NCBI GenBank assembly: GCA_038249055.1 | Contig: JBBRWS010000006.1 | Location: 927 to 64,926 of the forward strand | Reading direction: 5' to 3' | Length of the DNA: 64,000 nt | DNA from: Minisyncoccia bacterium | GTDB taxonomy: Bacteria > Patescibacteriota > Minisyncoccia > Phycocordibacterales > UBA9973 | Shown here: one piece after another, positions 2,968 through 64,000 of the stretch | How positions within the stretch are numbered: the first letter of the stretch is position 1 | Layout: the number at the start of each line of letters is the position of its first letter | Position numbers and translations under genes: made by a program | Notes under the pieces: model-generated | Told to the model about the DNA's origin: nothing | Seen by the model: only the letters and a program-made list of their open reading frames with translations | Database searches by the model: none

Positions 2968-3172
2968 TGGCCGAACTGAGAGGTCCAACCACGTGTGGCC
3001 CCAGTGATTGTACCTCTAATGAGGAAACCCAAGGTCTTTTTAAAAAATATGATACGATTATTTTTATTTATAATCCATAACAGGGGTACAACCTTGATTG
3101 AGTACAATCACCTACTGGGCCGAAGCCACAGCCCGTGAGGTCAATTTGGTAATTGAAGCTTGGACCTCTATA
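2968..3172. repeat. Composite GC-rich palindromic repeat (two sub-elements) of the GAGGTCCAACC/GGTACAACC family
   Basis: gaggtccaaccacgtgtggccccagtgattgtacctc (2979-3017) and ggggtacaaccttgattgagtacaatcacctactgggccgaagccacagcccgtgaggtc...cttggacctcta (3083-3170). The second part aligns over about 95 bp with the copy at 5400-5490. Confidence 0.8.
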
Positions 3173-3179
3173 AAAACTC

Positions 3180-3953
3180 TTAAAAATAACTTAATATAAT
3201 TTTAGTGAAAAGTAGCCCAAAAAATGTTGCAAATATAAATGCTGGTTCAACAGCTAATATTTTGTTAATTTCTGATTCAATAAAATTTATTTTTGGGAAA
3301 AATTGTTTAAAAATGGTTTCAGATAATCTTTCTGATATAACAGGATAAATTTTCTTAAAAATAGTTTTTAAATAATAAAAAGCAAAGAACAAAATAGCAA
3401 AAATAAACCCTAAGGACAAGGAAACTAATACTCCCATCCATCCAGAAATCAGCATTAGAACTAACATTAACTCAGGACCCTTTTCCAAAAATCCTCCCCG
3501 ATAAAATTTCCAAGTTCTAAATACAAAATACATAAGACCTGAAAAAGTAAATAAAATAAAAATATTAAGCCATACTCTTCCCCAAATATAAAACAAGAAA
3601 TATCCAAGATTATTATTAAAAAGTGGACGAGTCCATTCTAAATAAGAAGGAAATGTAATTTCTACAGGAAGAGGAGAAGTTAATAAAAACTTAGTAACTT
3701 CACTTGCGGTTGACCATACATAGTACTGACCCCAAGAAACAAATAATCCATAAAAAATATTCAAACCGAGAGCGATAAGAATAAGTTTTAAAAATGAAAT
3801 ATTCTTTAGTCCAGTAAATATTTTTGACAGGAATTTATTGTTGGATTTTATCCAAGTAGGTTGAAAATAACGAATAGCTACTATGATTAAAAATAAAATC
3901 CATACACCTAAAACTATCGCGTTTAAATTAGAAAAAATAAAATTTAATATCAT
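3180..3953 (-). CDS. Hypothetical polytopic membrane protein
   Basis: 257 aa ORF with 6 or more hydrophobic segments. No prepilin-peptidase motifs (no CxxC, no DxxxD), so it is not called PilD. Confidence 0.5.
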   Translation of the reverse strand: MILNFIFSNLNAIVLGVWILFLIIVAIRYFQPTWIKSNNKFLSKIFTGLKNISFLKLILIALGLNIFYGLFVSWGQYYVWSTASEVTKFLLTSPLPVEITFPSYLEWTRPLFNNNLGYFLFYIWGRVWLNIFILFTFSGLMYFVFRTWKFYRGGFLEKGPELMLVLMLISGWMGVLVSLSLGFIFAILFFAFYYLKTIFKKIYPVISERLSETIFKQFFPKINFIESEINKILAVEPAFIFATFFGLLFTKIILSYF

Positions 3954-4014
3954 AATGCCCTATTATATACAAAAAACACCTCAGTGTAAAACTGAGGTGT
4001 TTTTAGAGAGAAAA

Positions 4015-4897: not shown

Positions 4898-5281
4898 TTA
4901 TTTAAGATACATTTTTATTTTATTTATAATTTCTTGAATAGATTGATCTATTTTAACTAAATATTCAGTTGCTCCGAGTTCTAATGCTCGAGTCTTATCG
5001 TCTTGTTGTCCAAGATTTGAAATAATTATTATTGGAATTTTTGAATATTTTGAATTTTTTCTAATTTCCTCTAACACCCAAAAACCATCTTTCTTTGGAA
5101 TCATTAAATCAAGAATAACAAGGTCTGGATGTGCTTCTTCAAGGAGTTCTATTGCTTCTTCCCCATTACGGGCAAGAATTGAAAAAATTCCAGCTTTTGC
5201 GAGCTGTAATTGATAAACTTTTGAAATCTGAAAATCATCTTCTACTATTAGTATCCTCTTTTCATCTGTATCCATGTACAC
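4898..5281 (-). CDS. Single-domain response regulator receiver (CheY-like)
   Basis: 127 aa. ILIVEDD...DLVILDLMIP...K gives the acidic pocket, phospho-acceptor Asp and conserved Lys pattern. There is no output domain. Confidence 0.8.
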   Translation of the reverse strand: MYMDTDEKRILIVEDDFQISKVYQLQLAKAGIFSILARNGEEAIELLEEAHPDLVILDLMIPKKDGFWVLEEIRKNSKYSKIPIIIISNLGQQDDKTRALELGATEYLVKIDQSIQEIINKIKMYLK

Positions 5282-5367: not shown

Positions 5368-5490
5368 GGGAGTATACCTCCACACTTATATTTTTATAGA
5401 CATCCAACCTTGATTTAGTAAAATCACCTCACGGGCTAGCTGGCTTCGCCCAGTAGGTCATTATGCTTAATAAGAGGTTGTACATCTATA
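5368..5490. repeat. GC-rich palindromic repeat element (same family as 3083-3170)
   Basis: catccaaccttgatttagtaaaatcacctcacgggctagctggcttcgcccagtaggtcatt...aagaggttgtacatcta. The flanks are collinear with the 3083-3170 copy. The central 26-28 bp hairpin is inverted relative to that copy. Confidence 0.8.
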
Positions 5491-5568
5491 AAAATGGTTT
5501 GGGGGTATAGCAAGAAAATATAAAACTTGTTATAATTATTCAGAGATATAAGGGTTTCGTAAATCATT

Positions 5569-18165: not shown

Positions 18166-18357
18166 AATTTTTATTCTAGCATTTTAGCCAAATTTTTAAT
18201 ACACACTCTGACACCATAATAAAATGAGGATCATGAGTACATTTCTTGGTCCATATTGGACCTGTACACCTTTCGTATTTTCTAAGATTGGTAAATCATA
18301 TAAAATATACTCAAGGTTTTCAAGTCCTCTCACGCAAGCCGTACCAACGGCTTGCTT

Positions 18358-18414
18358 CCGGCACCATAATTAAAAAACCAGGACTTTGTCCTGGTTTTTT
18401 AATTATGGTGCCGG
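18358..18414. terminator. Extended palindrome/bidirectional terminator embedding the tRNA-Leu 3' end
   Basis: ccggcaccataattaaaaaacc-aggactttgtcct-ggttttttaattatggtgccgg. The arms are perfect 22-bp inverted repeats and the loop is itself palindromic. The right arm is the 3' end of tRNA-Leu. Confidence 0.8.
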
Positions 18415-18490
18415 AGAGAGGACTTGAACCTCCATCCCTTGCGAGACGCGATTTTGAGTCGCGCGCGTATACCAATTCCGCCACTCCGGC
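18406..18490 (-). tRNA. tRNA-Leu (anticodon CAA), CCA encoded
   Basis: The reverse complement reads GCCGGAGTGGCGGAATTGGTATACGCGCGCGACTCAAAATCGCGTCTCGCAAGGGATGGAGGTTCAAGTCCTCTCTCCGGCACCA. Long variable arm, anticodon loop cTCAAaa. Confidence 0.9.
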
Positions 18491-26451: not shown

Positions 26452-26542
26452 ATAGAGGTCCAACCTCTACCTAAATTGAAAATAATTGAAATAAAACTGT
26501 TGATAAATAAAGGTATATTTTAGGTAGAGGTTGGACCTCTAT
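26452..26542. repeat. 24-bp perfect inverted repeats (hairpin-containing) of the GAGGTCCAACCTC family
   Basis: atagaggtccaacctctacctaaa at 26452-26475 and tttaggtagaggttggacctctat at 26519-26542. Each arm is itself a palindrome (tagagg-tccaa-cctcta). Located between divergent/convergent gene ends. Confidence 0.85.
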
Positions 26543-30247: not shown

Positions 30248-30460
30248 TTATAACAACAAACGAGGAGCGCATGCAAATAAATACCAATTTATTTGCATTG
30301 CGTCCGAGAGCAGTTGTTCTATAGTACTCTATATAACAACAAGAAAGGAGCATAAGCAAATTAATTAATATTTATTTGCTTAATGTCCGAATGCCGTTGT
30401 TATATCGTAATCGATATAACAACAAGAAAGGAGACAAGCAAATATTGAATTCTTAAATTT
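30248..30460. repeat. Tandem palindromic repeat array (about 2.5 units of about 82 bp) upstream of the T4CP-like gene
   Basis: Units begin with ataacaacaa(g/a)a(a/c)(g)gag at 30253, 30336 and 30416. Each has an internal hairpin gcaaataaat..atttatttgc. A perfect 12-bp inverted repeat gttgttatatcg-taa-cgatataacaac sits at a unit junction. Confidence 0.75.
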
Positions 30461-30561: not shown

Positions 30562-31089
30562 ATGAAAAAATGGTTTTTCTTAATGGTGTGTTTAATTATT
30601 TCTTTCACTTTTGTAAAAGAAATAGCAAATTCCTCAAATTCACCACCGCAAAACAAAATGTTAGCAATGGATGAATCTCTTCTGGTAATTATGCCTGGTA
30701 TTGAAAGTGGAGTCCAAAAACTACAGATCCCAATTGCAATCTCGGAGGTATTGTATATCAAAAAGAATTTTTCGTTTTGTGCTGTGTTACAAACCGTAAG
30801 TATGTGCCCCATGGTAAGTAACAATTTAATGAAAAATTACCCAACGAAAAATTTACCTCAGTTAGCTAAGAACCAAATTGAAATGGTATCTGCAAATCCA
30901 ACCATGGAGGGGTTGGTTATCAAAAAAGATTTTACTAATTTTTCTGGAGTTAATTATCTTATTGATGCAAGCAAACGTTGTACAATTTATGCAACATCAC
31001 AATCATTCCAGCTATCAACCGTGGAGGGGTTATGTATCAACGAAAAAGTTAATTCTTTTCCAGTAAATTTTACCGGCTTCATTGCATAG
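30562..31089 (+). CDS. Secreted hypothetical protein (signal peptide)
   Basis: N-terminal MKKWFFLMVCLIISFTFV signal peptide. 175 aa with an internal repeat. Confidence 0.35.
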   Translation: MKKWFFLMVCLIISFTFVKEIANSSNSPPQNKMLAMDESLLVIMPGIESGVQKLQIPIAISEVLYIKKNFSFCAVLQTVSMCPMVSNNLMKNYPTKNLPQLAKNQIEMVSANPTMEGLVIKKDFTNFSGVNYLIDASKRCTIYATSQSFQLSTVEGLCINEKVNSFPVNFTGFIA

Positions 31090-34571: not shown

Positions 34572-36083
34572 ATGAACGGAAAAATAAAACAAGGGCTAAC
34601 CAAAAATTCTATATCTAATGACTCATCTTTGATTAAGAATTCTAAAATAATTGATACTGAATTCAAAGATAATAATACTCGAAATAATGAAGATGAATTA
34701 TTAAAAAAAGAAGAAATATTACTGGAAGAAGGTGAAGAATTATTAGAAAAAGAAGAAACACTATTAGAGGAAAGTAAAAATATTATAAAAAAAGAAGAAA
34801 CGTTATTAGAGGAAAGTGAAAAATTATTAAAAGAAGGAAAAGATTATATAAAAAAACTTGGTCCAGGGATAATTACCGGAGCTGCCGATGACGACCCATC
34901 TGGAATTGCTACTTACTCACAAACAGGTGCTCAATATGGAACTGGATTATTATGGCTTGCAGCTTGGACATTCCCATTAATGGCAATGATCCAAGAAATG
35001 TGTGCTCGTATATCATTAGTTACAGGACGAGGTCTTGCTGCTAATATTAAACATGCTTATTCAAAAAAAGTTTTATATCTCTGTACAGCATTACTTTTTA
35101 TAGCTAATACCTTAAATATCGGTGCAGATCTTGGAGCAATGGCTAAAGCAGTTCAATTAATATCTCCATCTATGTCTTTCGCGTTCTTAGTTATTTTTAT
35201 AGGAATTGCTGGTTTACTCATGGAAATATTTATTCCATATAAGAAATACGCTAAATATCTAAAATGGTTAGTAATAACATTGTTCTCGTATGTAATAACT
35301 GGATTACTTATTAATATGGATTGGTCTATGTTATTAAAAGATGGAATTATTCCTCATATTACATTTTCTAAAACACAGATTCTTCTCATCACAGGTATAC
35401 TAGGAACAACAATTTCTCCTTATCTTTTCTTTTGGCAAACATCTCAAGAAGTTGAAGAACAAATAGCTGAAGGTAAAACAACCGCTCATTCACGAAGAGG
35501 AACTAATGCTGCTGAAATAAAATCAATGAGAATAGATATATGGTCAGGAATGTTTCTTTCAAATATGGTAATGTTTTTTATTATCGCAGTATGTGCAAAT
35601 ACCCTTTTTGTAAATGGAATTACAGATATAGCAACCGCAAGCGATGCAGCAGCTGCACTTAAACCATTTGCAGGACCATTTGCATCAATACTCTTTACTA
35701 TTGGAATAATTGGAACTGGATTATTGGCTATTCCAGTTTTAGCTGGTTCCACTTCTTATGCAATATCCGAAAGTTTAGGATGGAAAGAAGGTTTATATCG
35801 TAAATTAAATGAGGCTCGAGCTTTTTATGGAGTAATAATTGTATCTATTTTTATCGGTATAATTATAAACTTTCTAGGAATAAACCCAATCAAAGCTCTT
35901 ATATATTCTGCCATTGCAAATGGTATAGTAGCCCCTGTTATAATTGTATGTATAGTTCATATTAGTTCAAGCCATAAAATTATGGGGCATTTTAAAAATT
36001 CTAAATTTGTAAATATAGTTGGATGGGCGTTATCTGCTCTTATGGGGATTACTGCAGTCGCCGCAATATATTCCCTCTTTTAG
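34572..36083 (+). CDS. NRAMP-family divalent metal transporter with N-terminal low-complexity E/K/L repeat
   Basis: The core is GPGIITGAADDDPSGIATYSQTGAQYG (NRAMP TM1 signature) with 11 TMs. The N-terminal roughly 90 aa carry repeated EETLLEES(K/E) motifs. Confidence 0.7.
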   Translation: MNGKIKQGLTKNSISNDSSLIKNSKIIDTEFKDNNTRNNEDELLKKEEILLEEGEELLEKEETLLEESKNIIKKEETLLEESEKLLKEGKDYIKKLGPGIITGAADDDPSGIATYSQTGAQYGTGLLWLAAWTFPLMAMIQEMCARISLVTGRGLAANIKHAYSKKVLYLCTALLFIANTLNIGADLGAMAKAVQLISPSMSFAFLVIFIGIAGLLMEIFIPYKKYAKYLKWLVITLFSYVITGLLINMDWSMLLKDGIIPHITFSKTQILLITGILGTTISPYLFFWQTSQEVEEQIAEGKTTAHSRRGTNAAEIKSMRIDIWSGMFLSNMVMFFIIAVCANTLFVNGITDIATASDAAAALKPFAGPFASILFTIGIIGTGLLAIPVLAGSTSYAISESLGWKEGLYRKLNEARAFYGVIIVSIFIGIIINFLGINPIKALIYSAIANGIVAPVIIVCIVHISSSHKIMGHFKNSKFVNIVGWALSALMGITAVAAIYSLF

Positions 36084-36382: not shown

Positions 36383-36520
36383 TTAGGTGGACCTTAGCGA
36401 GCAAACTACTTTGCTCGCGTGCGGCGATTAGTAAATCGAACCGTGAGGAACTCGGAAAGCTTTTCGTTATAAATTTTAATTTAATAATTTAAATTTATCG
36501 AAAAGGTGTACTGAAGCAGT
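36383..36520 (+). other. Conserved tRNA-downstream non-coding module, copy 2
   Basis: ggaccttAGCGAGCAAACTACTTTGCTCGCGTG...TCGAA...GGAAAGCTTTTCGTT...CGAAAAGGTGTACTG. The motif order is the same as at 15811-15942. Confidence 0.6.
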
Positions 36521-36732
36521 AGGCTTCGAGAAATGTAATCATGGTCCGCCTATCGTGATACACAATATTTAGATGCAAAGCATACTATATAAAAAGTTTT
36601 AGTCGCGGGTGAGAAGCGCGAATAAGTACATTCGCCTACTGGGTACTCGCGGTCCGCTACTTGTAGGCTTCGAGAAATGTACTCATGGTCCGCCTTTCGT
36701 GATACACAATATTTAGATGCAAAGCATATCAC
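36521..36732. repeat. Two 65-bp direct repeats
   Basis: aggcttcgagaaatgta(a/c)tcatggtccgcct(a/t)tcgtgatacacaatatttagatgcaaagcata occurs at 36521-36585 and 36666-36730. The track ORF 36550..36732 is a translation artefact of this repeat. A partial copy of the tRNA-Ala T-arm (gcggtccgcta) lies at 36651-36661. Confidence 0.85.
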
Positions 36733-36791
36733 ACAATAAAAACAGCCATCTTAAAAAGACAGCTGTTAATTTAAACTTAGGATAAAAAAAA

Positions 36792-38809: not shown

Positions 38810-38862
38810 TAAAAAATAGAGGTTGTACGTCTATGGAAGACGTCCAACCTCTATTTTTTTAT
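38810..38862. terminator. Bidirectional terminator formed by a GAGGTTG(G/T)AC-family palindromic element
   Basis: aaaaaatagaggttgtacgtcta-tggaa-gacgtccaacctctattttttt, between convergent genes. Confidence 0.8.
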
Positions 38863-38872
38863 TATTTTATAT

Positions 38873-39850
38873 TTATTCCCATTCAAATTTTCTTCCAAAA
38901 TGTCCCCACGTGCAAGTATCAGAAAATTTAACAACATCCAATTTCAAGTGATTATGTATCCCCTTTGGAGTTAAATCGTAATCAGTTATTTCTACTTCTT
39001 TTCCATCTATTACAGCCACAGCCATTACTGGCTCACTCTTACCTATTGCATAAGCAAGCTTTGTATATACTTCTTTCGCATTATGCTTCTTTAGTAAGTC
39101 CACAGCTATTTTACGAGCCATATAAGCACCAGAGCGATCTACTTTTGTATAATCCTTACCAGAGAAAGAACCTCCTCCAATTGTAATCTCTGGTCCATAG
39201 TTATCTACTATCAATTTTCTTCCAGAAAGTCCTGTGTCTGCATCAAATCCACCTTGATTCCATTCTCCCGCAGGATTTATAAGATATTCTTCTGATTCAA
39301 TAATATTTTTTACAAGTTCTAAAAGTTTATCGTTTTTAGTATTTTGAAAACTAGCTACGACTGTAGTAACGACACCATTATCTACTGTCACTTGAGTCTT
39401 TCCATCATAAGGATATACTTCAAATATTTTCTGACATAAATTTCGGGCAAGATTATATTCGAGAGGTAAATATGTATCAGTCTCACTTGTAGCATAACCT
39501 TTCATTATTCCTTGGTCTCCCGCTCCACCCGTATCAACTCCTTGTGCTATTTCTGGACTTTGTAAAACTATATTCGACAAAATTTTAAAATCTTTACCTA
39601 CTATTTTTTTTATAATAGCTTCTATGTCTGGATTTGATTTTGAAGTAACTTCTCCATTGATGGCTACCAGATTATGCCCACCCATTACTTCTATAGCACA
39701 ACGACTATTCTTATCTCCTTCTAAATATGCATCTAAAATACTATCCGCAATAAAATCACATATTTTATCTGGGTGCATTGGACTCACAAACTCTGCAGTT
39801 TTTTTACTCATGCTTGATTTATAAGGAAGAATGACTATATAAATCGGCAT
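38873..39850 (-). CDS. metK: S-adenosylmethionine synthetase (short form)
   Basis: Near the N-terminus: FVSPMHPDKICDFIADSILDAYL (the GHPDK motif). Also GGGAFSGKD. The likely start is the internal ATG (MSKKTAEF..., about 39811). Total length is about 312-325 aa. Confidence 0.8.
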   Translation of the reverse strand: MPIYIVILPYKSSMSKKTAEFVSPMHPDKICDFIADSILDAYLEGDKNSRCAIEVMGGHNLVAINGEVTSKSNPDIEAIIKKIVGKDFKILSNIVLQSPEIAQGVDTGGAGDQGIMKGYATSETDTYLPLEYNLARNLCQKIFEVYPYDGKTQVTVDNGVVTTVVASFQNTKNDKLLELVKNIIESEEYLINPAGEWNQGGFDADTGLSGRKLIVDNYGPEITIGGGSFSGKDYTKVDRSGAYMARKIAVDLLKKHNAKEVYTKLAYAIGKSEPVMAVAVIDGKEVEITDYDLTPKGIHNHLKLDVVKFSDTCTWGHFGRKFEWE

Positions 39851-40165
39851 CCTGTTAAATAAGATTTAACAGGGTTGATTAAAATATAATACGCTTCGCT
39901 CCTTTATTTTAATTAAAAAATTCCTCATAATGAGGAAAGATATAGATGACTAGTCTTATCTTTCCATAATAATACACTTGCATTATTTGGCTGGATTTAG
40001 CACCTTGCTTTCGCGGGTTGCTGATGGGTCATTGAGCCAGTTGCTCTCGCCATACTCTTGATAACTAACTATTTAGTTGTAATTTTATTATAGCATAATT
40101 TTATAAACAAAAATATTTCCATAAAAAAAATAACGAGGATATATCCTCGTTATTTTTTTATAATA

Positions 40166-52113: not shown

Positions 52114-52128
52114 AATTAAATAATTAAA

Positions 52129-52174
52129 ATAGAGGTTGGACGTCTACGATAGACGTCCAACCTCTATTTTTTTA
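52129..52174. terminator. Bidirectional terminator formed by a GAGGTTGGAC-family palindromic element
   Basis: atagaggttggacgtcta-cga-tagacgtccaacctctattttttt, between convergent genes. Confidence 0.8.
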
Positions 52175-55027: not shown

Positions 55028-55120
55028 TGGTAGAGGTCCAACCTCTACCAAAAAAATACCCATATAAATAAGGATATAATAAATTAAAAAACTCAAAAAG
55101 GTAGAGGTCCAACCTCTACC
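55028..55120. repeat. Two identical 21-bp palindromes ggtagaggtccaacctctacc about 71 bp apart
   Basis: At 55029-55049 and 55100-55120, between the ddl start and the uvrC stop. Same sequence family as 26452-26542. Confidence 0.85.
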
Positions 55121-55124
55121 TAAA

Positions 55125-56507
55125 TTAGGTGAGGAAATTTTTATTTCTCTTTAGTTTATGAAAGGCAATAGCAAACCTATGAGATTCAGTATTTATTAAA
55201 AGAATTTCTTTTTTATATTTCTTAATAATTAACTCATCCCCCATTATTGCTTTCGCTTTGTGTTTATCGTCTTTAACAACCGACACAACTGGAATTTTAA
55301 ATTGATATCGATTTAAAACTGATTTAGCTATATTAATTTGAGCTACCCCTCCATCCATAACTATTAAATTTGGAAGTCCCCACTCTGTATGACGCAAGCG
55401 GCGCGATAAAACTTCTTCGAGTGCACCAGTATCATTTGATTTAGTTTGAGTTCTAATTATAAACTTTTTATATTCACTTTTATTTAATTCACCATTTTCA
55501 ATTACGGTCATAACTCCAACCATATTAGAACCAGATAAATGTGCTATATCGTAAGCTTCAATTCTGAAGAGAGCCTTAGAGGTACAACATCCGGAGCCAG
55601 CTTGATGTTGGACCTCTCGGCGAGGAGATCCCTGCCCGACTACGTCATTCGGGCGGGCGAAGACCTTTTGAAAAGGATTTTCATGCATAATATCATCTTT
55701 AATTAAAGCAACATCATTTATATGCTCAAGTGCAAAAATTCTTTTCTTTATTTCATCAGCCTTTTCAAATTCTTTCTTTTTTGCAAAAGACATCATCTCT
55801 TTTTTAAAATTTGAAATAATTATCTTCTTTTTTCCTTCAAAAAATAATTTGAGATTTCTTATATTTTTCTTATATCCAAGCAACATATCAGAAAAATCTT
55901 TTTCGAAATAGCCCGCCCGAGCTTCAGGGGTACAACCTCCGAAGCCATTTGAGGTTGGACCTCTACGGCTCGGGCATTCAATTAAAGGAACAAGACCTAG
56001 CTGTCTATAAAATTCTTTGTTATTTTTTTTACTTGATTGTTCATCAATAAAAGGGAAAATTCTTCTTACAATTTTCATTGCATCTCTCAATTGCATTCCG
56101 TTTGGAAAGGGACCATAAACCACATCATAATTTTCTTTATTCAAATTTCTACCTCGAAGAACCAAAACCTTTGGCAATAAATCTTTAGTAATACAAACAT
56201 AGTTAAAACTTTTATTATCTTTTTCTTTAGTATTATATTTAGGTAAATATTTCTTAATTAAATTTGCTTCTAATATCAGTGCCTCCAAGACACTGTCTGT
56301 TTCTTTCCATTTAATAGAAGTTGCTTGAGTTACCATATCGAGCAATAATGGTCCCCGAGTTGCTATTAGATCATTCCCAAAATAACTCTTTACTCTATCA
56401 GAGAGATTTGTCGCTTTACCTATATAAAGTATATCTTTCCCTTTATAAAAGAAATATACACCTGGTTTTTTGGGTAATTTTATTTTTTTAAATTGTTGAC
56501 TATTCAC
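55125..56507 (-). CDS. uvrC: Excinuclease ABC subunit C (short form lacking the C-terminal HhH region), carrying two in-frame palindromic-element insertions
   Basis: GIY-YIG N-terminus (LPKKPGVYFFYKGKDILYIGKATNLSDRVKSYF). UVR domain (FEKADEIKKRIFALEH). RIEAYDIAHLSGSNMVGVMTV...EYKKFII (the RIEcfDiSH block). C-terminal endonuclease domain LIVMDGGVAQ. 460 aa. Confidence 0.85.
   Translation of the reverse strand: MNSQQFKKIKLPKKPGVYFFYKGKDILYIGKATNLSDRVKSYFGNDLIATRGPLLLDMVTQATSIKWKETDSVLEALILEANLIKKYLPKYNTKEKDNKSFNYVCITKDLLPKVLVLRGRNLNKENYDVVYGPFPNGMQLRDAMKIVRRIFPFIDEQSSKKNNKEFYRQLGLVPLIECPSRRGPTSNGFGGCTPEARAGYFEKDFSDMLLGYKKNIRNLKLFFEGKKKIIISNFKKEMMSFAKKKEFEKADEIKKRIFALEHINDVALIKDDIMHENPFQKVFARPNDVVGQGSPRREVQHQAGSGCCTSKALFRIEAYDIAHLSGSNMVGVMTVIENGELNKSEYKKFIIRTQTKSNDTGALEEVLSRRLRHTEWGLPNLIVMDGGVAQINIAKSVLNRYQFKIPVVSVVKDDKHKAKAIMGDELIIKKYKKEILLINTESHRFAIAFHKLKRNKNFLT
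55576..55665. mobile_element. GC-rich nested palindromic element inserted in frame in uvrC (copy 1)
   Basis: ttagaggtacaacatccggagccagcttgatgttggacctctcggcgaggagatccctgcccgactacgtcattcgggcgggcgaag. It encodes the odd G/P/R/Q/C-rich peptide VVGQGSPRREVQHQAGSGCCTSKALF between the UVR domain and the RIEAYD block. Confidence 0.75.
55911..55978. mobile_element. GC-rich nested palindromic element inserted in frame in uvrC (copy 2)
   Basis: gcccgcccgagc-ttcag-gggtacaacctccgaagccatttgaggttggacctc-tacg-gctcgggc. It encodes ECPSRRGPTSNGFGGCTPEARAG. Confidence 0.75.
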
Positions 56508-59678: not shown

Positions 59679-59755
59679 CGTGATATAGCTCAGTTGGTAG
59701 AGCACTAAGCCTAAAAAACTCAGAGGTCGGGAGTTCAAGTCTCTCTATCACGACG
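59679..59755 (+). tRNA. tRNA-like gene with canonical acceptor, D and T arms but a 9-nt anticodon loop (CCUAAAAAA) and an A-C mismatch in the anticodon stem
   Basis: cgtgata-ta-gctc-agttggta-gagc-a-ctaag-cctaaaaaa-ctcag-aggtc-gggag-ttcaagt-ctctc-tatcacg-a. The architecture parallels tRNA-Lys/Thr. Terminator at 59797-59829. Confidence 0.5.
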
Positions 59756-60691: not shown

Positions 60692-62902
60692 TTATTTTTT
60701 ATCTTTTGGTAGAAGTTTATTATTTAATGCTATAATTTCATCTCTTAGTATAGCTGCCGTTTCGAAATCCAATTCCTTTACTGCTTTATTCATTTCTTTC
60801 TCTTTAAGATTAATTATTTTTTCGTATATAATTTTATTTCTATCTTGATCTGAAAGTAATAAATTTTTAATTGATTCTCTCTCCCCCTTTCCTTTATTGC
60901 TCTTATTTTTTAGAAATGCTTTTTTAAATAATTCCACATCCAAATCAAGTTCTACTCCTACAGCTTTTTCGTGTTTATTTTCTAATTCTTCTGTTATATC
61001 TTTTATCTTTTTTATAATTGTTTTGGGGGTAATATTATGTTTTTTATTGTAAGCTATTTGTATATTGCGACGACGAGTTGTTTCCTTAATAGCATTTTCA
61101 AGTGCATCGGTCATAATATCTGCATATAAAATAACACGACCTTCTACATTACGAGCTGCACGTCCTATAGTTTGTATTAAAGACGTCTCAGAACGCAAGA
61201 ATCCCGCCTTGTCAGCATCTAAAATACCTATTAGGGCTAACTCGGGTAAATCTAATCCTTCACGTAGCAAGTTTACTCCTACGAGTATATCCATATCCCC
61301 CTTTCTAAATGCAGTCAAAATCTGAATTCTTTCAATTGTTTTAATTTCGCTGTGCAAATATTCAGCTTTCATTCCCTTTTCTTTTAAATAAATAGACAAA
61401 TCTTCAGCCATTTTTTTTGTTAAAGTTGTAGCAATAACTCTAAATCCTTTCTTTATTGTTTTTTCAGCTTCTATAATAAAGTCTTGAATTTGACCAGGGT
61501 AATCTTTCAGAGGTCCAACTTCCTCCGACGTACAACCTCTGGGGCCACATGAGGTTGGACGTCTTAAGACCTCTGAAATATTTGAGGACCTCGCAATAAG
61601 CTTCTCATTTGTGGAAGCGGAGACTGGTTTTACAATTATCTCTGGATCAATCAAACCAGTAGGTCTAATTATTTGTTCTACTATTTGGTCGCTTGCTGAC
61701 TTTTCCTTTTCACTGGGAGTTGCCGAAACGTATATTACCTGTCCCGTGCGTTCTTCAAATTCATTAATCTTTAGTGGACGATTATCTCGAGCTGATGGAA
61801 GTCTAAAACCAAACTCTATCAGAGTATTTTTTCGAGATGCATCTCCCGCATACATTCCACCTATTTGTGGAAGTGTAACGTGTGATTCGTCTATAATTGT
61901 TAAAAATTCATTTCTAAAATATGAGAGCAATGTTTCAGGAGCTTCTCCTTCTTTCTTACCAGACATCTGCCTGGAATAATTTTCTATTCCATTACAATAA
62001 CCAATTTCTTTAATCATAGCCAAATCGTAACTTGTTCTTCTTTTTATTCTTTCTGCTTCAAGTGGTTTTCCTTCCTTTTCAAATTTTTTAAGTTGAGAAT
62101 CGAGTTCAAGTTTAATATTTTTTATTGCAATCTTTAATTGATCTTTGTTTGTAATAAAGTGCTTTGCAGGAAAAAGAAAAATATTTTTTTCCTCTTTTAT
62201 TATATGAGATGAAATTGGATCTACTTTTGCAATCCTTGAAATAACTCCTCTCTCAAATTCTATTTGATAAACAAAAGTTTCAGATATTGGCATAATCTCA
62301 ACTTTCTGTCCTATTGACCTAAAATTCCCTGGATTAATATCTGCATTAGTTCGTTCAAAATGAATTATAACTAATTTCTTCATTAGTTCGATACGTTCCA
62401 TTTTCATTCCAACTTCTAGCTTTAAATTAACTTTCTCATAATCCTCAGGGCTACCCAATCCATAAATACAAGATACGGAAGCCACAATAATAACATCTGG
62501 ACGAGTAAGGAGCGATTGTGTAGTTGCATGTCTAAGGCGGTCAATTTCTTTGTTTATTTGAGCATCTTTTTCAATATAAGTATCTGAAGCAGGCATATAT
62601 GCCTCTGGTTGATAGTAGTCATAATAGGATACAAAATAATGAACTGCTGCATCAGGAAAAAACTCTCGGAACTCTTGAGCGAGCTGTGCAGCAAGCGTTT
62701 TATTGTGGGCTATTACTAGAGTCGGTTTATTCCATTCTGCAATTACGTTTGCAACTGTAAAGGTTTTACCAGTACCGGTTGCCCCAAGAAGTGTTTGTTT
62801 TTGCATTCCTTCCTTTAATCCTTTTAACAACTCCGAAATTGCTTTTGGTTGATCACCATCTGGTTTATAGTCACTTTTTAATTTAAAAACTTTATCTTTC
62901 AT
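60692..62902 (-). CDS. uvrB: Excinuclease ABC subunit B carrying an in-frame palindromic-element insertion
   Basis: Helicase motif I GATGTGKT. DEAD-like DESH (IIDESHVT). Motif VI QTIGRAARN. C-terminal UVR domain FETAAILRDEIIAL. 736 aa. Confidence 0.95.
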   Translation of the reverse strand: MKDKVFKLKSDYKPDGDQPKAISELLKGLKEGMQKQTLLGATGTGKTFTVANVIAEWNKPTLVIAHNKTLAAQLAQEFREFFPDAAVHYFVSYYDYYQPEAYMPASDTYIEKDAQINKEIDRLRHATTQSLLTRPDVIIVASVSCIYGLGSPEDYEKVNLKLEVGMKMERIELMKKLVIIHFERTNADINPGNFRSIGQKVEIMPISETFVYQIEFERGVISRIAKVDPISSHIIKEEKNIFLFPAKHFITNKDQLKIAIKNIKLELDSQLKKFEKEGKPLEAERIKRRTSYDLAMIKEIGYCNGIENYSRQMSGKKEGEAPETLLSYFRNEFLTIIDESHVTLPQIGGMYAGDASRKNTLIEFGFRLPSARDNRPLKINEFEERTGQVIYVSATPSEKEKSASDQIVEQIIRPTGLIDPEIIVKPVSASTNEKLIARSSNISEVLRRPTSCGPRGCTSEEVGPLKDYPGQIQDFIIEAEKTIKKGFRVIATTLTKKMAEDLSIYLKEKGMKAEYLHSEIKTIERIQILTAFRKGDMDILVGVNLLREGLDLPELALIGILDADKAGFLRSETSLIQTIGRAARNVEGRVILYADIMTDALENAIKETTRRRNIQIAYNKKHNITPKTIIKKIKDITEELENKHEKAVGVELDLDVELFKKAFLKNKSNKGKGERESIKNLLLSDQDRNKIIYEKIINLKEKEMNKAVKELDFETAAILRDEIIALNNKLLPKDKK
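61510..61594. mobile_element. GC-rich palindromic element inserted in frame in uvrB
   Basis: agaggtccaacttcctccgacgtacaacctctggggccacatgaggttggacgtcttaagacctctgaaatatttgaggacctcgc. It encodes ...RRPTSCGPRGCTSEEVGPLKDYPGQ... Confidence 0.75.
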
Positions 62903-63138: not shown

Positions 63139-64000
63139 TCAAGAAAGATAATTTTTTAAAAATTCTTCTTTAAAATCAAAAAAATTATCCTCAAGTATGG
63201 ATTTACGCATATCTGAAACAAGCTTATTTATAAAATAAATATTATGTATTGAAGCGAGTGTAGCCCCCAACATTTCTTTTGCTCGAAAAAGATGAGACAT
63301 ATAACTTCTTGTATAATTTATACATGTATAACATTCACAACCGGAATCAATTATATTAAAATCTTTAACAAATTTTGCATTAAGAATATTTATTTTTCCA
63401 TTCTTAGTAAATAAAGTTCCATTGCGAGCAATACGGGTAGGACCAACGCAATCAAAAAGGTCTACTCCATTTTCTACTCCCATAAACAAGTCTTCTGGTT
63501 CCCCTATGCCAAGCAAATGACGTGGTTTTTCTTCTGGAAGAATTTCATTCACCCATTTTACTGCTGTAGACATGTCTTCTTTTGCAAAAGAACCACCAAT
63601 TCCAAAACCATCAAAATCCATACTACCAATAACTTCTGCTGATTTTTTACGAAGTATTTCTGAACGTCCCCCTTGAACAATGCCAAAGAGAGCTTGAGGA
63701 AAAGAAGGGGTCCGAAATCCTAGAGGTACAACCTCCGAAGCCAGTTGAGGTTGGACCTCCAGAATTGCGGGTGTAGTATCTTTTATTAATTCCCTCTTTT
63801 TATGTTCTATTAAACTTCTCTTTGCCCAAGCATGTGTACGAGAAAGTGCTTCTTCTTGATAGCGATTATTTTCTGTTGGAGACGTACATTCATCAAAAGC
63901 AAAAATAATATCGGCTCCGAGATTATGTTGAATTTCTATTGATTTTTCTGGAGTAATATAATGAAGTGAACCATCTATGTGTGAGCGAAAAGAAACACCA
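63139..64000 (-). CDS. tgt: Queuine tRNA-ribosyltransferase (N-terminus beyond window end) carrying an in-frame palindromic-element insertion
   Basis: Manual reverse translation is open to position 64000. It reads ...FRSHIDGSLHYITPEKSIEIQHNLGADIIFAFDECTSPTENNRYQEEALSRTHAWAKRSLIEHKK[RELIKDTTPAILEVQPQLASEVVPLGFRTPSFPQ]ALFGIVQGG...MDFDGFGIGG...CECYTC..H zinc site. The track shows only the 3' ATG-initiated part (63139..63621). Confidence 0.9.
   Translation of the reverse strand, partial: GVSFRSHIDGSLHYITPEKSIEIQHNLGADIIFAFDECTSPTENNRYQEEALSRTHAWAKRSLIEHKKRELIKDTTPAILEVQPQLASEVVPLGFRTPSFPQALFGIVQGGRSEILRKKSAEVIGSMDFDGFGIGGSFAKEDMSTAVKWVNEILPEEKPRHLLGIGEPEDLFMGVENGVDLFDCVGPTRIARNGTLFTKNGKINILNAKFVKDFNIIDSGCECYTCINYTRSYMSHLFRAKEMLGATLASIHNIYFINKLVSDMRKSILEDNFFDFKEEFLKNYLS
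63706..63772. mobile_element. GC-rich palindromic element inserted in frame in tgt
   Basis: aggggtccgaaatcctagaggtacaacctccgaagccagttgaggttggacctccagaattgcgggtg. The core is identical in arrangement to the uvrC copies. Confidence 0.75.

Follow-up and report, generated by a model that had tools for sequence, protein, structure and literature searches.

In the tgt gene (queuine tRNA-ribosyltransferase) at the end of a 64,000-nucleotide stretch of DNA from a Minisyncoccia bacterium, an ultra-small member of the candidate phyla radiation (contig JBBRWS010000006.1; the whole stretch is called the window below), a GC-rich palindromic element interrupts the coding sequence in frame. It consists of two copies of a short unit of the repetitive extragenic palindromic (REP) type, TAGAGGT-NNN-ACCTCTA, with a 7-bp stem and a 3-nt loop. 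This doublet sits in the alpha4-beta5 loop of the triosephosphate isomerase (TIM) barrel, between helix alpha4 (WAKRS...) and strand beta5 (ALFGIVQGG). We consider it probable, at roughly 0.72, that the element belongs to a lineage-specific family of REP doublets of this Nomurabacteria/Paceibacteria genome, resembling the REPINs (REP doublets forming hairpins) of other bacteria, associated with REP-associated tyrosine transposases (RAYTs) and tolerated in frame in the Tgt loop.

The in-frame palindrome in tgt

The features that define the tgt insertion are the following.

63139-64000, continuing past the window end, minus strand: tgt (queuine tRNA-ribosyltransferase), C-terminal 286 codons and stop codon, recognised from the open frame, Pfam and the Protein Data Bank (PDB)
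63722-63759, minus strand: REP doublet (REPIN-like core) in tgt, 38 nt, with arms GAGGTACAACCTC and GAGGTTGGACCTC and loop CGAAGCCAGTT on the plus strand
63700-63789, minus strand: tgt codons standing in place of a short native linker (LIKDTTPAILEVQPQLASEVVPLGFRTPSF), net gain of about 25-27 codons

The minus-strand frame of tgt (63139-63999) was unbroken through the palindrome and read ...THAWAKRSLIEHKKRELIKDTTPAILEVQPQLASEVVPLGFRTPSFPQALFGIVQGG..., which confirms the claim of an earlier note on this DNA that Tgt is continuous across the GC-rich element; the peptide and the coordinates (63706-63772) given there were right as well. The product matched the Pfam family TGT (E = 2e-94) and solved Tgt structures in the PDB (E = 7e-65), with D156, Q203, G230, D280 and the zinc ligands all aligning, and the protein P0001 (429 aa) is a full-length protein identical to the window Tgt. 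On the plus strand the palindrome at 63722-63759 is composed of AGAGGTACAACCTC-CGAAGCCAGTT-GAGGTTGGACCTC, with two 13-nt arms, one A.G mismatch and an 11-nt loop, and its minus-strand reading is EVQPQLASEVVPL. Weaker outer pairs widen the hairpin to about 63706-63772, and the hairpin predicted for the 90-nt insert region had an energy of -34 kcal/mol. The GC content at 63710-63769 was 0.53, compared with 0.30 window-wide.

When aligned with the Tgt of Z. mobilis, query residues 64-102 stood opposite chain positions 186-198, leaving about 26 residues extra. The gap between WAKRS and LFGIVQGG comprised 41 residues in the window Tgt, whereas it comprised 12-14 in clade orthologues with an empty site. 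The gain of about 25 aa that had been proposed is close to the roughly 26-27 extra residues found relative to both solved Tgt and clade orthologues, and the orthologue alignment that the note had put forward as a check revealed that close orthologues differ in length exactly at the insert. The two blocks had been described as adjacent in E. coli Tgt; as a small correction, they are not strictly so, ordinary Tgt having 11-14 residues between them.

The insert corresponds to residues 214-243 of P0001. In the AlphaFold2 model of this protein (predicted template modelling score 0.81) a helix (188-218) is followed by a coil (219-245) and a strand (246-251), and the predicted local distance difference test score (pLDDT) was below 50 at residues 223-238 within the coil. 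The model suggests that the insert, if translated as its open frame implies, would be a disordered surface peptide of 25-27 residues. Since the insert precedes the N-terminal end of the strand bearing the substrate-binding Gln, TIM-barrel topology would place it on the face of the barrel opposite the catalytic, tRNA-binding face and away from the named dimer contacts. [quoted passage not shown] A second clade-specific segment with pLDDT below 50 was present at residues 97-134 of P0001, in the N-terminal part of Tgt that lies past the window end; its sequence is conserved across 60 aligned homologues, unlike that of the REP site.

The repeat family in the window

Allowing up to two mismatches, GAGGTTGGACCTC occurred 20 times in the window, whereas 0.28 occurrences were expected from shuffles (largest shuffle, 2). 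The unit was found as singles, as terminator-like inverted pairs, as a long form and as the 38-nt doublet, the last of these at one intergenic position (2979-3018) and at four in-frame positions (two in uvrC, one in uvrB and one in tgt). The window held seven intergenic sites and four in-frame genic copies, and all four genic copies lay within the tgt-uvrB-uvrA-uvrC cluster. This bears out the earlier assignment of the uvrB and uvrC elements to one family with the tgt element, because both genes contain the shared doublet in frame, and also the count of the tgt element as the fourth in-frame copy within 9 kb. The copies other than that in tgt were as follows.

2979-3018: intergenic REP doublet, diverged, with a compensated inner stem CAC/GTG
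3082-3170: long form, with termini and apical loop (CGAAGCCACA) as in the short element and about 27 additional stem pairs
5395-5491: oppositely oriented long form with apical loop TAGCTGGCTTCG
26453-26469 and 26525-26541: two single REP units in inverted orientation, intergenic spacer
38817-38853: REP pair in the spacer of two convergent genes, its arms in the other order (GAGGTTGTACGTC...GACGTCCAACCTC) and bordered by an A-run and a T-run
52126-52170: intergenic REP pair, 20-bp hairpin between convergent genes, terminator-like on both strands
55031-55047 and 55102-55118: single REP units GGTAGAGGTCCAACCTCTACC, both located between ddl and uvrC, of which the second directly follows the uvrC stop codon and is terminator-like
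55569-55688, minus strand: uvrC insert 2, in frame, doublet at 55578-55617 in a compensated CATC/GATG variant, just before the RNase H-like endonuclease domain
55908-55982, minus strand: uvrC insert 1, in frame, doublet at 55926-55963, read as ...RRGPTSNGFGGCTPE...
61513-61617, minus strand: uvrB insert, 105 nt, in frame, REP doublet at 61526-61563

The single units, which start at 26453, 26525, 55031 and 55102, have the form GGTAGAGGT(CCA/TGG)ACCTCTACC. The inverted pairs at 38817-38853 and 52126-52170 resemble bidirectional terminators, and extragenic copies score as terminator-like. Relatives of the long form at 3082-3170 were present in three further loci (L106, L123 and L125). The Rfam search over the window recovered only four tRNAs and an S-adenosylmethionine (SAM) riboswitch, with no match at the elements and no intron match, and the doublet pattern had no match in viral contigs.

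Metagenome copies and conservation of pairing

A degenerate pattern of the doublet retrieved 59 copies from 51 metagenome contigs of 29-38% GC, about one-third of them within long open reading frames (ORFs) and about two-thirds outside. Eleven copies were located in housekeeping genes, in loops or between domains, namely in those for LeuRS (2 contigs), TsaD (3), DNA polymerase I (2), a class-V aminotransferase, TruB, MnmA and UvrC. The copies in PolA, MnmA, LeuRS, TsaD, TruB and the class-V aminotransferase lay between domains or interrupted Pfam matches; UvrB and Tgt hosts were recognised by the context of the flanking peptides. Three more copies that span ORFs, at the 5' ends of an aldolase-like and an IF-2-like ORF, are probably non-coding. 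Two of the element-bearing contigs showed additional features. In L125, the UvrC ORF (with the copy spanning 3614-3645) contained three different hairpin-element peptides, FFSGPRTRKDEGPD, LEVQHQDGFGCCTS and QEYKNFSRFTPEGSYTDKN, and the families of LEVQHQDGFGCCTS and QEYKNFSRFTPEGSYTDKN were also found in Tgt of other genomes. In L095, the LeuRS ORF (copy spanning 5105-5135) carried, besides the REP doublet, a NUDIX domain after the editing domain.

The consensus of the core, about 41 nt long with 13-nt arms and a loop of 11-12 nt, is [T/C]AGAGGTACAACCTC-CGAAGCCAGnn(n)-GAGGTTGGACCTCT[A/G]. The same DNA yields several peptides depending on orientation and frame (EVQP..EVVPL, EVQP..GFGGCTS, EVQPPKPVEVGPL and GTTSEASQ.LD), and genic copies use open frames only: EVQP... 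in either orientation and GTTSEAS... in the second frame. Copies with a stop codon of the loop in an otherwise open frame (e.g., GCCAGCTAGAGG) were found outside ORFs only, and every genic copy added a multiple of three nucleotides and was stop-free in the frame used. Genic copies survive only if their length is a multiple of three, if the stop-free frame is the one read and if the site is a permissive loop or linker.

Among 52 distinct copies, 90% of the cells of the stem columns were paired. Seven of the 17 stem pairs changed on both sides, which amounted to 72 cells compared with 29.7 in shuffles (none of the 500 shuffles reached 72), although the search pattern preset several columns and relatedness of copies through sub-family inheritance inflates these covariation counts. 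Examples of covarying pairs are the series CCTC/GAGG, CATC/GATG and CACC/GGTG, and the series GAGGT/ACCTC, GACGT/ACGTC and GAAGT/ACTTC. As the same DNA is read in differing frames and orientations, the sequence of the peptide is dictated by that of the DNA and shows no conservation of its own. The inserted peptide is probably a passenger, and what is conserved is the pairing of the arms at the nucleic-acid level.

The Tgt loop across relatives

The closest Tgt proteins came from Nomurabacteria/Paceibacteria of the candidate phyla radiation. WAKRS and LFGIVQGG were separated by at most 21 residues (mode 14) in 37 of 84 Tgt loci and by over 30 residues in 43 of them; among the 120 closest proteins the separation ranged from 16 to 86. 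The long versions carry many mutually unrelated peptides. After trimming of the shared flanking codons, single-linkage clustering divided 44 Tgt inserts into at least 14 DNA clusters, a lower bound because the largest cluster was merged via composite inserts; such a composite, with two families side by side, was present in L106. All the inserts fold into long hairpins, their AT-rich outer parts included. No frame-breaking insert was found in the 87 recovered Tgt loci (L001-L080). The Tgt alpha4-beta5 loop is thus a recurrent site for hairpin inserts.

The family of the window occurs in Tgt in both orientations, that of L118 being opposite to that of the window and L106, which could result either from separate insertions or from flipping of the hairpin in place. 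In the Tgt of the nearest relative, L081, one single unit was present at the site, and its right junction was common to L118. The pattern GA[GC]GTNNNAC[CG]TC occurred 13 times in the window and three times in its closest relative; among the other 79 Tgt loci it occurred at most once or twice in five and was absent from the rest. The TAGAGGT-NNN-ACCTCTA family is accordingly lineage-specific.

Gain or loss of copies in uvrB and uvrC

The locus L081 (GCA_964663815.1) is syntenic with the window, sharing tgt, uvrB, a PdaC-like gene, uvrA, uvrC and ddl. Its UvrB is 94% identical and lacks exactly the 105 nt that occupy 61513-61617 in the window, and its UvrC lacks both inserts. These differences in uvrB and uvrC represent gain or loss of copies, whichever mechanism produced them. 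In the alignment with solved UvrB chains, query residues 428-469 stood opposite chain position 428, which places the insert exactly between two aligning stretches; in uvrC, both inserts separate the GIY-YIG domain from the RNase H-like one. Of the orthologous single units of the ddl-uvrC spacer, the two in the window have the stem TAGAGGT/ACCTCTA, and the two in L081 have CAGACGT/ACGTCTG. Because the two units are alike within each genome, they point to homogenisation per genome.

Outside the core, the flanks formed copy-specific inverted repeats, with a mean of 2.4 extra pairs, whereas mismatched flanks gave 0.6; at least four extra flank pairs were present in 15 of 54 copies. The right flank of the uvrB insert, AAAGATT, is host sequence that is present in the empty allele too, whereas its inverted copy AATCTTT was found in filled alleles only. 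Direct target-site duplications were not seen at the copies. The palindromic flanks, for which uvrB provides one clean allele pair, suggest either insertion into existing palindromes or post-insertion growth by template switching. The window also contains a perfect palindrome (18357-18415; stem of 28 bp) whose right arm is the 3' end of tRNA-Leu(CAA) (18406-18490, minus strand); the end of the tRNA is copied in inverted form across a terminator-like hairpin, the same pattern as in the inverted host flanks of the REP doublets.

RAYT-like transposase genes in relatives

When E. coli RayT was used as a tblastn query, it detected one ORF in L007 with a Pfam Y1_Tnp score of 37.9 bits (cut-off 23), and this RAYT-like gene has the hairpin AATTGCTAGGCAAGACCTAGCAATT on both sides. 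Two RAYT-like genes were present in L030. One of them (3334-4005) is flanked by CCCCAGATAGAGGTTAAACCTCTATCTGGGG and ...AGATAGAGGTTTAACCTCTATCTG..., and L140 repeats this arrangement; the hairpin CAGATAGAGGTT(T)AACCTCTATCTG of L030 and L140 has the 7-bp stem TAGAGGT/ACCTCTA, as in the units of the window. The second L030 gene (9243-9981) lies directly upstream of tgt with TGCGCAAGGTTTAACCTTGCGCA hairpins on either side, and CAGATAGCGCCTTAGGCGCTATCTG hairpins accompanied RAYT-like genes at six more loci, part of which have the conserved BipA to YceG neighbourhood given below. Among the loci examined, hairpins other than TAGAGGT flanked the RAYT-like genes of L007, L135-L139, L141, L142 and L144 as well as the second L030 gene.

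The RAYT-like proteins had 3651 homologues at E ≤ 1e-10, mostly from this clade, some of which are labelled RayT by JGI, and a HUH motif and a YxxxNP-like motif are visible in them. Moreover, the gene neighbourhood BipA, sigma-70-like, RAYT-like, DUF8128 and YceG is conserved in several Nomurabacteria (L136, L141 and L142-L145), which suggests that the transposase gene is vertically inherited and single-copy.

Origin and maintenance of the tgt element

If the window element is, as we favour, a RAYT-associated REP doublet, the units would, like the REPs of E. coli, be spread by a RAYT-type HUH/Y1 transposase that acts on the hairpin in single-stranded form. Most copies do lie between genes, often in terminator-like positions, and the genic ones are in frame, stop-free and in a permissive loop or inter-domain linker. 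Several points weigh against this reading. Searches by tblastn with E. coli RayT and the L007 protein detected no RAYT-like gene in the window or L081, nor in any of the 51 contigs bearing the element, so that a transposase link for the window genome would be drawn from relatives with a similar, not identical, hairpin. The sole NCBIfam match of the RAYT-like proteins, REP_Tyr_transpos, scored 29-44 bits, below the curated cut-off of 80. The GTAG tag of classical REPs is present at the stem base of all four single units only, the doublets having NTAG and the hairpins beside RAYT-like genes ATAG. The covariation counts are swollen by the preset columns and the sub-families noted above, and the translation of the tgt insert is a prediction from its open frame. 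Finally, the copy-specific inverted flanks and the inverted host copy at uvrB are not predicted by simple cut-and-paste.

These flanks would be accommodated by an origin of the hairpins in place, which we regard as unlikely as a full account. On this alternative, hairpins grow by template switching (fold-back copying) at replication, a seed palindrome being extended by inverted duplication of its neighbours, and the shared cores come from gene conversion or convergent seeds. It is in line with the copy-specific complementary flanks, with the AAAGATT host flank of uvrB whose inverted copy is confined to filled alleles, with the lack of direct target-site duplications, with the fact that unrelated Tgt inserts are all long hairpins with AT-rich outer stems resembling host sequence, and with the 28-bp palindrome at 18357-18415 bearing the inverted copy of a tRNA 3' end. 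In-situ growth cannot, however, make a 41-nt core that recurs with a conserved asymmetric mismatch and loop (CGAAGCCAG) at 59 or more unrelated loci, and the clade has RAYT-like genes with matching flanking hairpins. Growth of this kind more plausibly took place after insertion and supplemented transposition. A related and similarly doubtful idea would make "palindrome nurseries" of the Tgt alpha4-beta5 loop and of the UvrB/UvrC linkers in this clade, where repeated landing is followed by growth through inverted copying of host sequence, distinct from REP/RAYT transposition. If true, this would amount to a steady production of new protein segments in otherwise minimal genomes.

The elements might also be retained for a function, either as an mRNA hairpin tuning the processing, decay or translation of tgt, uvrB and uvrC or as a DNA uptake or recombination signal (cf. 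the Neisseria uptake sequences). The confinement of the four genic window copies to the tgt-uvrB-uvrA-uvrC cluster, the published finding, still without explanation, that intragenic REPs are in excess in genes of repair and replication (PMC3733652), the conserved pairing and the terminator-like extragenic copies are compatible with this. Yet close relatives manage without the uvrB and uvrC copies, the metagenome hosts also include LeuRS, TsaD, IscS-like, TruB and MnmA genes, and the occurrence of at least 14 unrelated sequences at the Tgt site across lineages speaks for tolerance more than for a specific function. As to an uptake signal, the density of about one unit per 3 kb, in clusters, is far under that of uptake sequences, and the elements are insertions and not codon-embedded motifs. 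Functional retention is improbable.

It is less probable still that the segment is left untranslated, whether through its removal from the mRNA or through ribosomal skipping of the kind known for T4 gene 60 and for the GC-rich "byp" elements in the mitochondria of yeast. A GC-rich palindrome in an AT-rich genome is formally like mobile GC clusters, and its hairpin is strong (-34 kcal/mol), but all genic copies are multiples of three, stop-free and in open frames, none of which excision or bypass needs, and copies with in-frame stops were found only outside long ORFs. An artefact of assembly or binning, in which a repeat was misjoined into tgt, can be given hardly any weight. The assembly is of the metagenome type and repeats are able to mis-join contigs; against this, the tgt flanks are colinear on both sides with the frame kept, the identical full-length protein is recorded from a 71.5 kb NCBI contig, and the family recurs at this very site in independent assemblies (L106, L118, P0002, P0016, P0018, P0049 and others).

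Other features of the window

Some further features were recorded. The SAM riboswitch at 39953-40067 (minus strand; Rfam RF00162, 51.5 bits) lies upstream of the gene at 38873-39850. The program ARAGORN assigned a tRNA at 59679-59754 (plus strand) as tRNA-Phe with anticodon AAA; its anticodon region CTAAGCCTAAAAAACTCAG is A-rich with a possibly enlarged loop, which is unusual in bacteria. Local repeats that are apparently non-coding were found at 30249-30414, 30737-31059 and 36519-36739 (two copies of 83 nt, three of 44 nt and two of 77 nt), the 83-nt repeats each being internally palindromic and the 77-nt repeats lying near tRNA-Ala. In addition, a tandem repeat with a 21-nt period (34681-34841) inside the ORF 34572-36083 encodes a heptad-like repeat rich in Glu, Leu and Lys.

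Significance and comparison with known systems

The results extend protein-coding palindromic repeats, previously described in Rickettsia and a few REP-rich bacteria, to the candidate phyla radiation, a group with some of the smallest genomes, in which mobile DNA is considered scarce, and they tie repeats in this radiation to RAYT-like transposase genes with flanking hairpins. Such inserts account for much of the unusual variation in length among conserved proteins of these lineages (404-474 aa in Tgt) and call for caution on the part of annotators and structure predictors. With an empty state and at least 14 unrelated inserts in about 80 species, the Tgt loop offers a natural series for the entry, tolerance and possible in-place growth of hairpins. 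A search of the literature available to the analysis for REP/RAYT systems or in-frame coding palindromes in Patescibacteria returned nothing relevant.

A close parallel is the REP/REPIN and RAYT system of E. coli and Pseudomonas (REPtrons), in which, as cited in PMC3733652, E. coli RAYT binds REP DNA in single-stranded form and cuts it at GTAG. Both systems consist of short imperfect palindromes in many copies, mostly extragenic and often just 3' of genes; two inverted units combine to form a larger hairpin, which has a conserved asymmetry (mismatch), and TAG is part of the stem base; the single-copy Y1 transposase genes, here those of relatives, are flanked by hairpins; and the sequence of the family varies among lineages and is homogenised per genome. 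The present family differs in its host of the candidate phyla radiation with 30% GC, its very short unit (7-bp stem and 3-nt loop), transposases that are only distant kin of curated RAYTs, a large genic in-frame share and copy-specific palindromic flanks.

Bacterial MITEs (miniature transposable elements with inverted repeats), such as Correia/NEMIS, RUP, Nezha and ERIC, are likewise small non-autonomous hairpin repeats that are sometimes co-transcribed or genic. They differ in having terminal inverted repeats derived from insertion sequences and direct target-site duplications, whereas here the whole element is the hairpin. We rejected an assignment to MITEs, since direct target duplications were absent, the flanks were inverted and no related insertion sequence was seen. 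An intron, intein or bypass element did not fit either, with all genic copies in frame, stop-free and multiples of three, and no Rfam intron.

The in-frame palindromic elements of Rickettsia, numbered RPE-1 to RPE-10 (Ogata et al. 2002 and Claverie and Ogata 2003, both cited in PMC3733652), are similar in being palindromes inserted in frame into housekeeping genes of a host-dependent bacterium with a small AT-rich genome, tolerated at surface or linker sites, with uvrB and tRNA pseudouridine synthase genes among the hosts. They are about 100-150 nt long, compared with a core of about 41 nt here, and the CGTC-type RPEs are without a known transposase, whereas the present clade has RAYT-like genes. 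Given the different phylum and the much shorter core, membership of the window family in RPE-1 to RPE-10 is unlikely.

The intragenic GTAG- and CGTC-tagged REPs and their dimers surveyed by Di Nocera et al. 2013 (PMC3733652) encode 20-30 residues and are enriched in the genes for UvrABC, PolA, RecBCD and tRNA pseudouridine synthase. The likeness extends to the presence of both singles and dimers in ORFs, the 20-30 residues, the UvrABC, PolA and tRNA pseudouridine synthase hosts and the proposed location in flexible linkers. That survey included neither this phylum nor tgt, and it reported the use of one site by many families only for recB of Xanthomonas, where different REPs are found at about the same place. 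The window case thus matches the published picture closely, host genes included, and the type of event is known from Rickettsia and other bacteria; what is new here is the lineage, the candidate phyla radiation, and the recurrent use of one Tgt loop.

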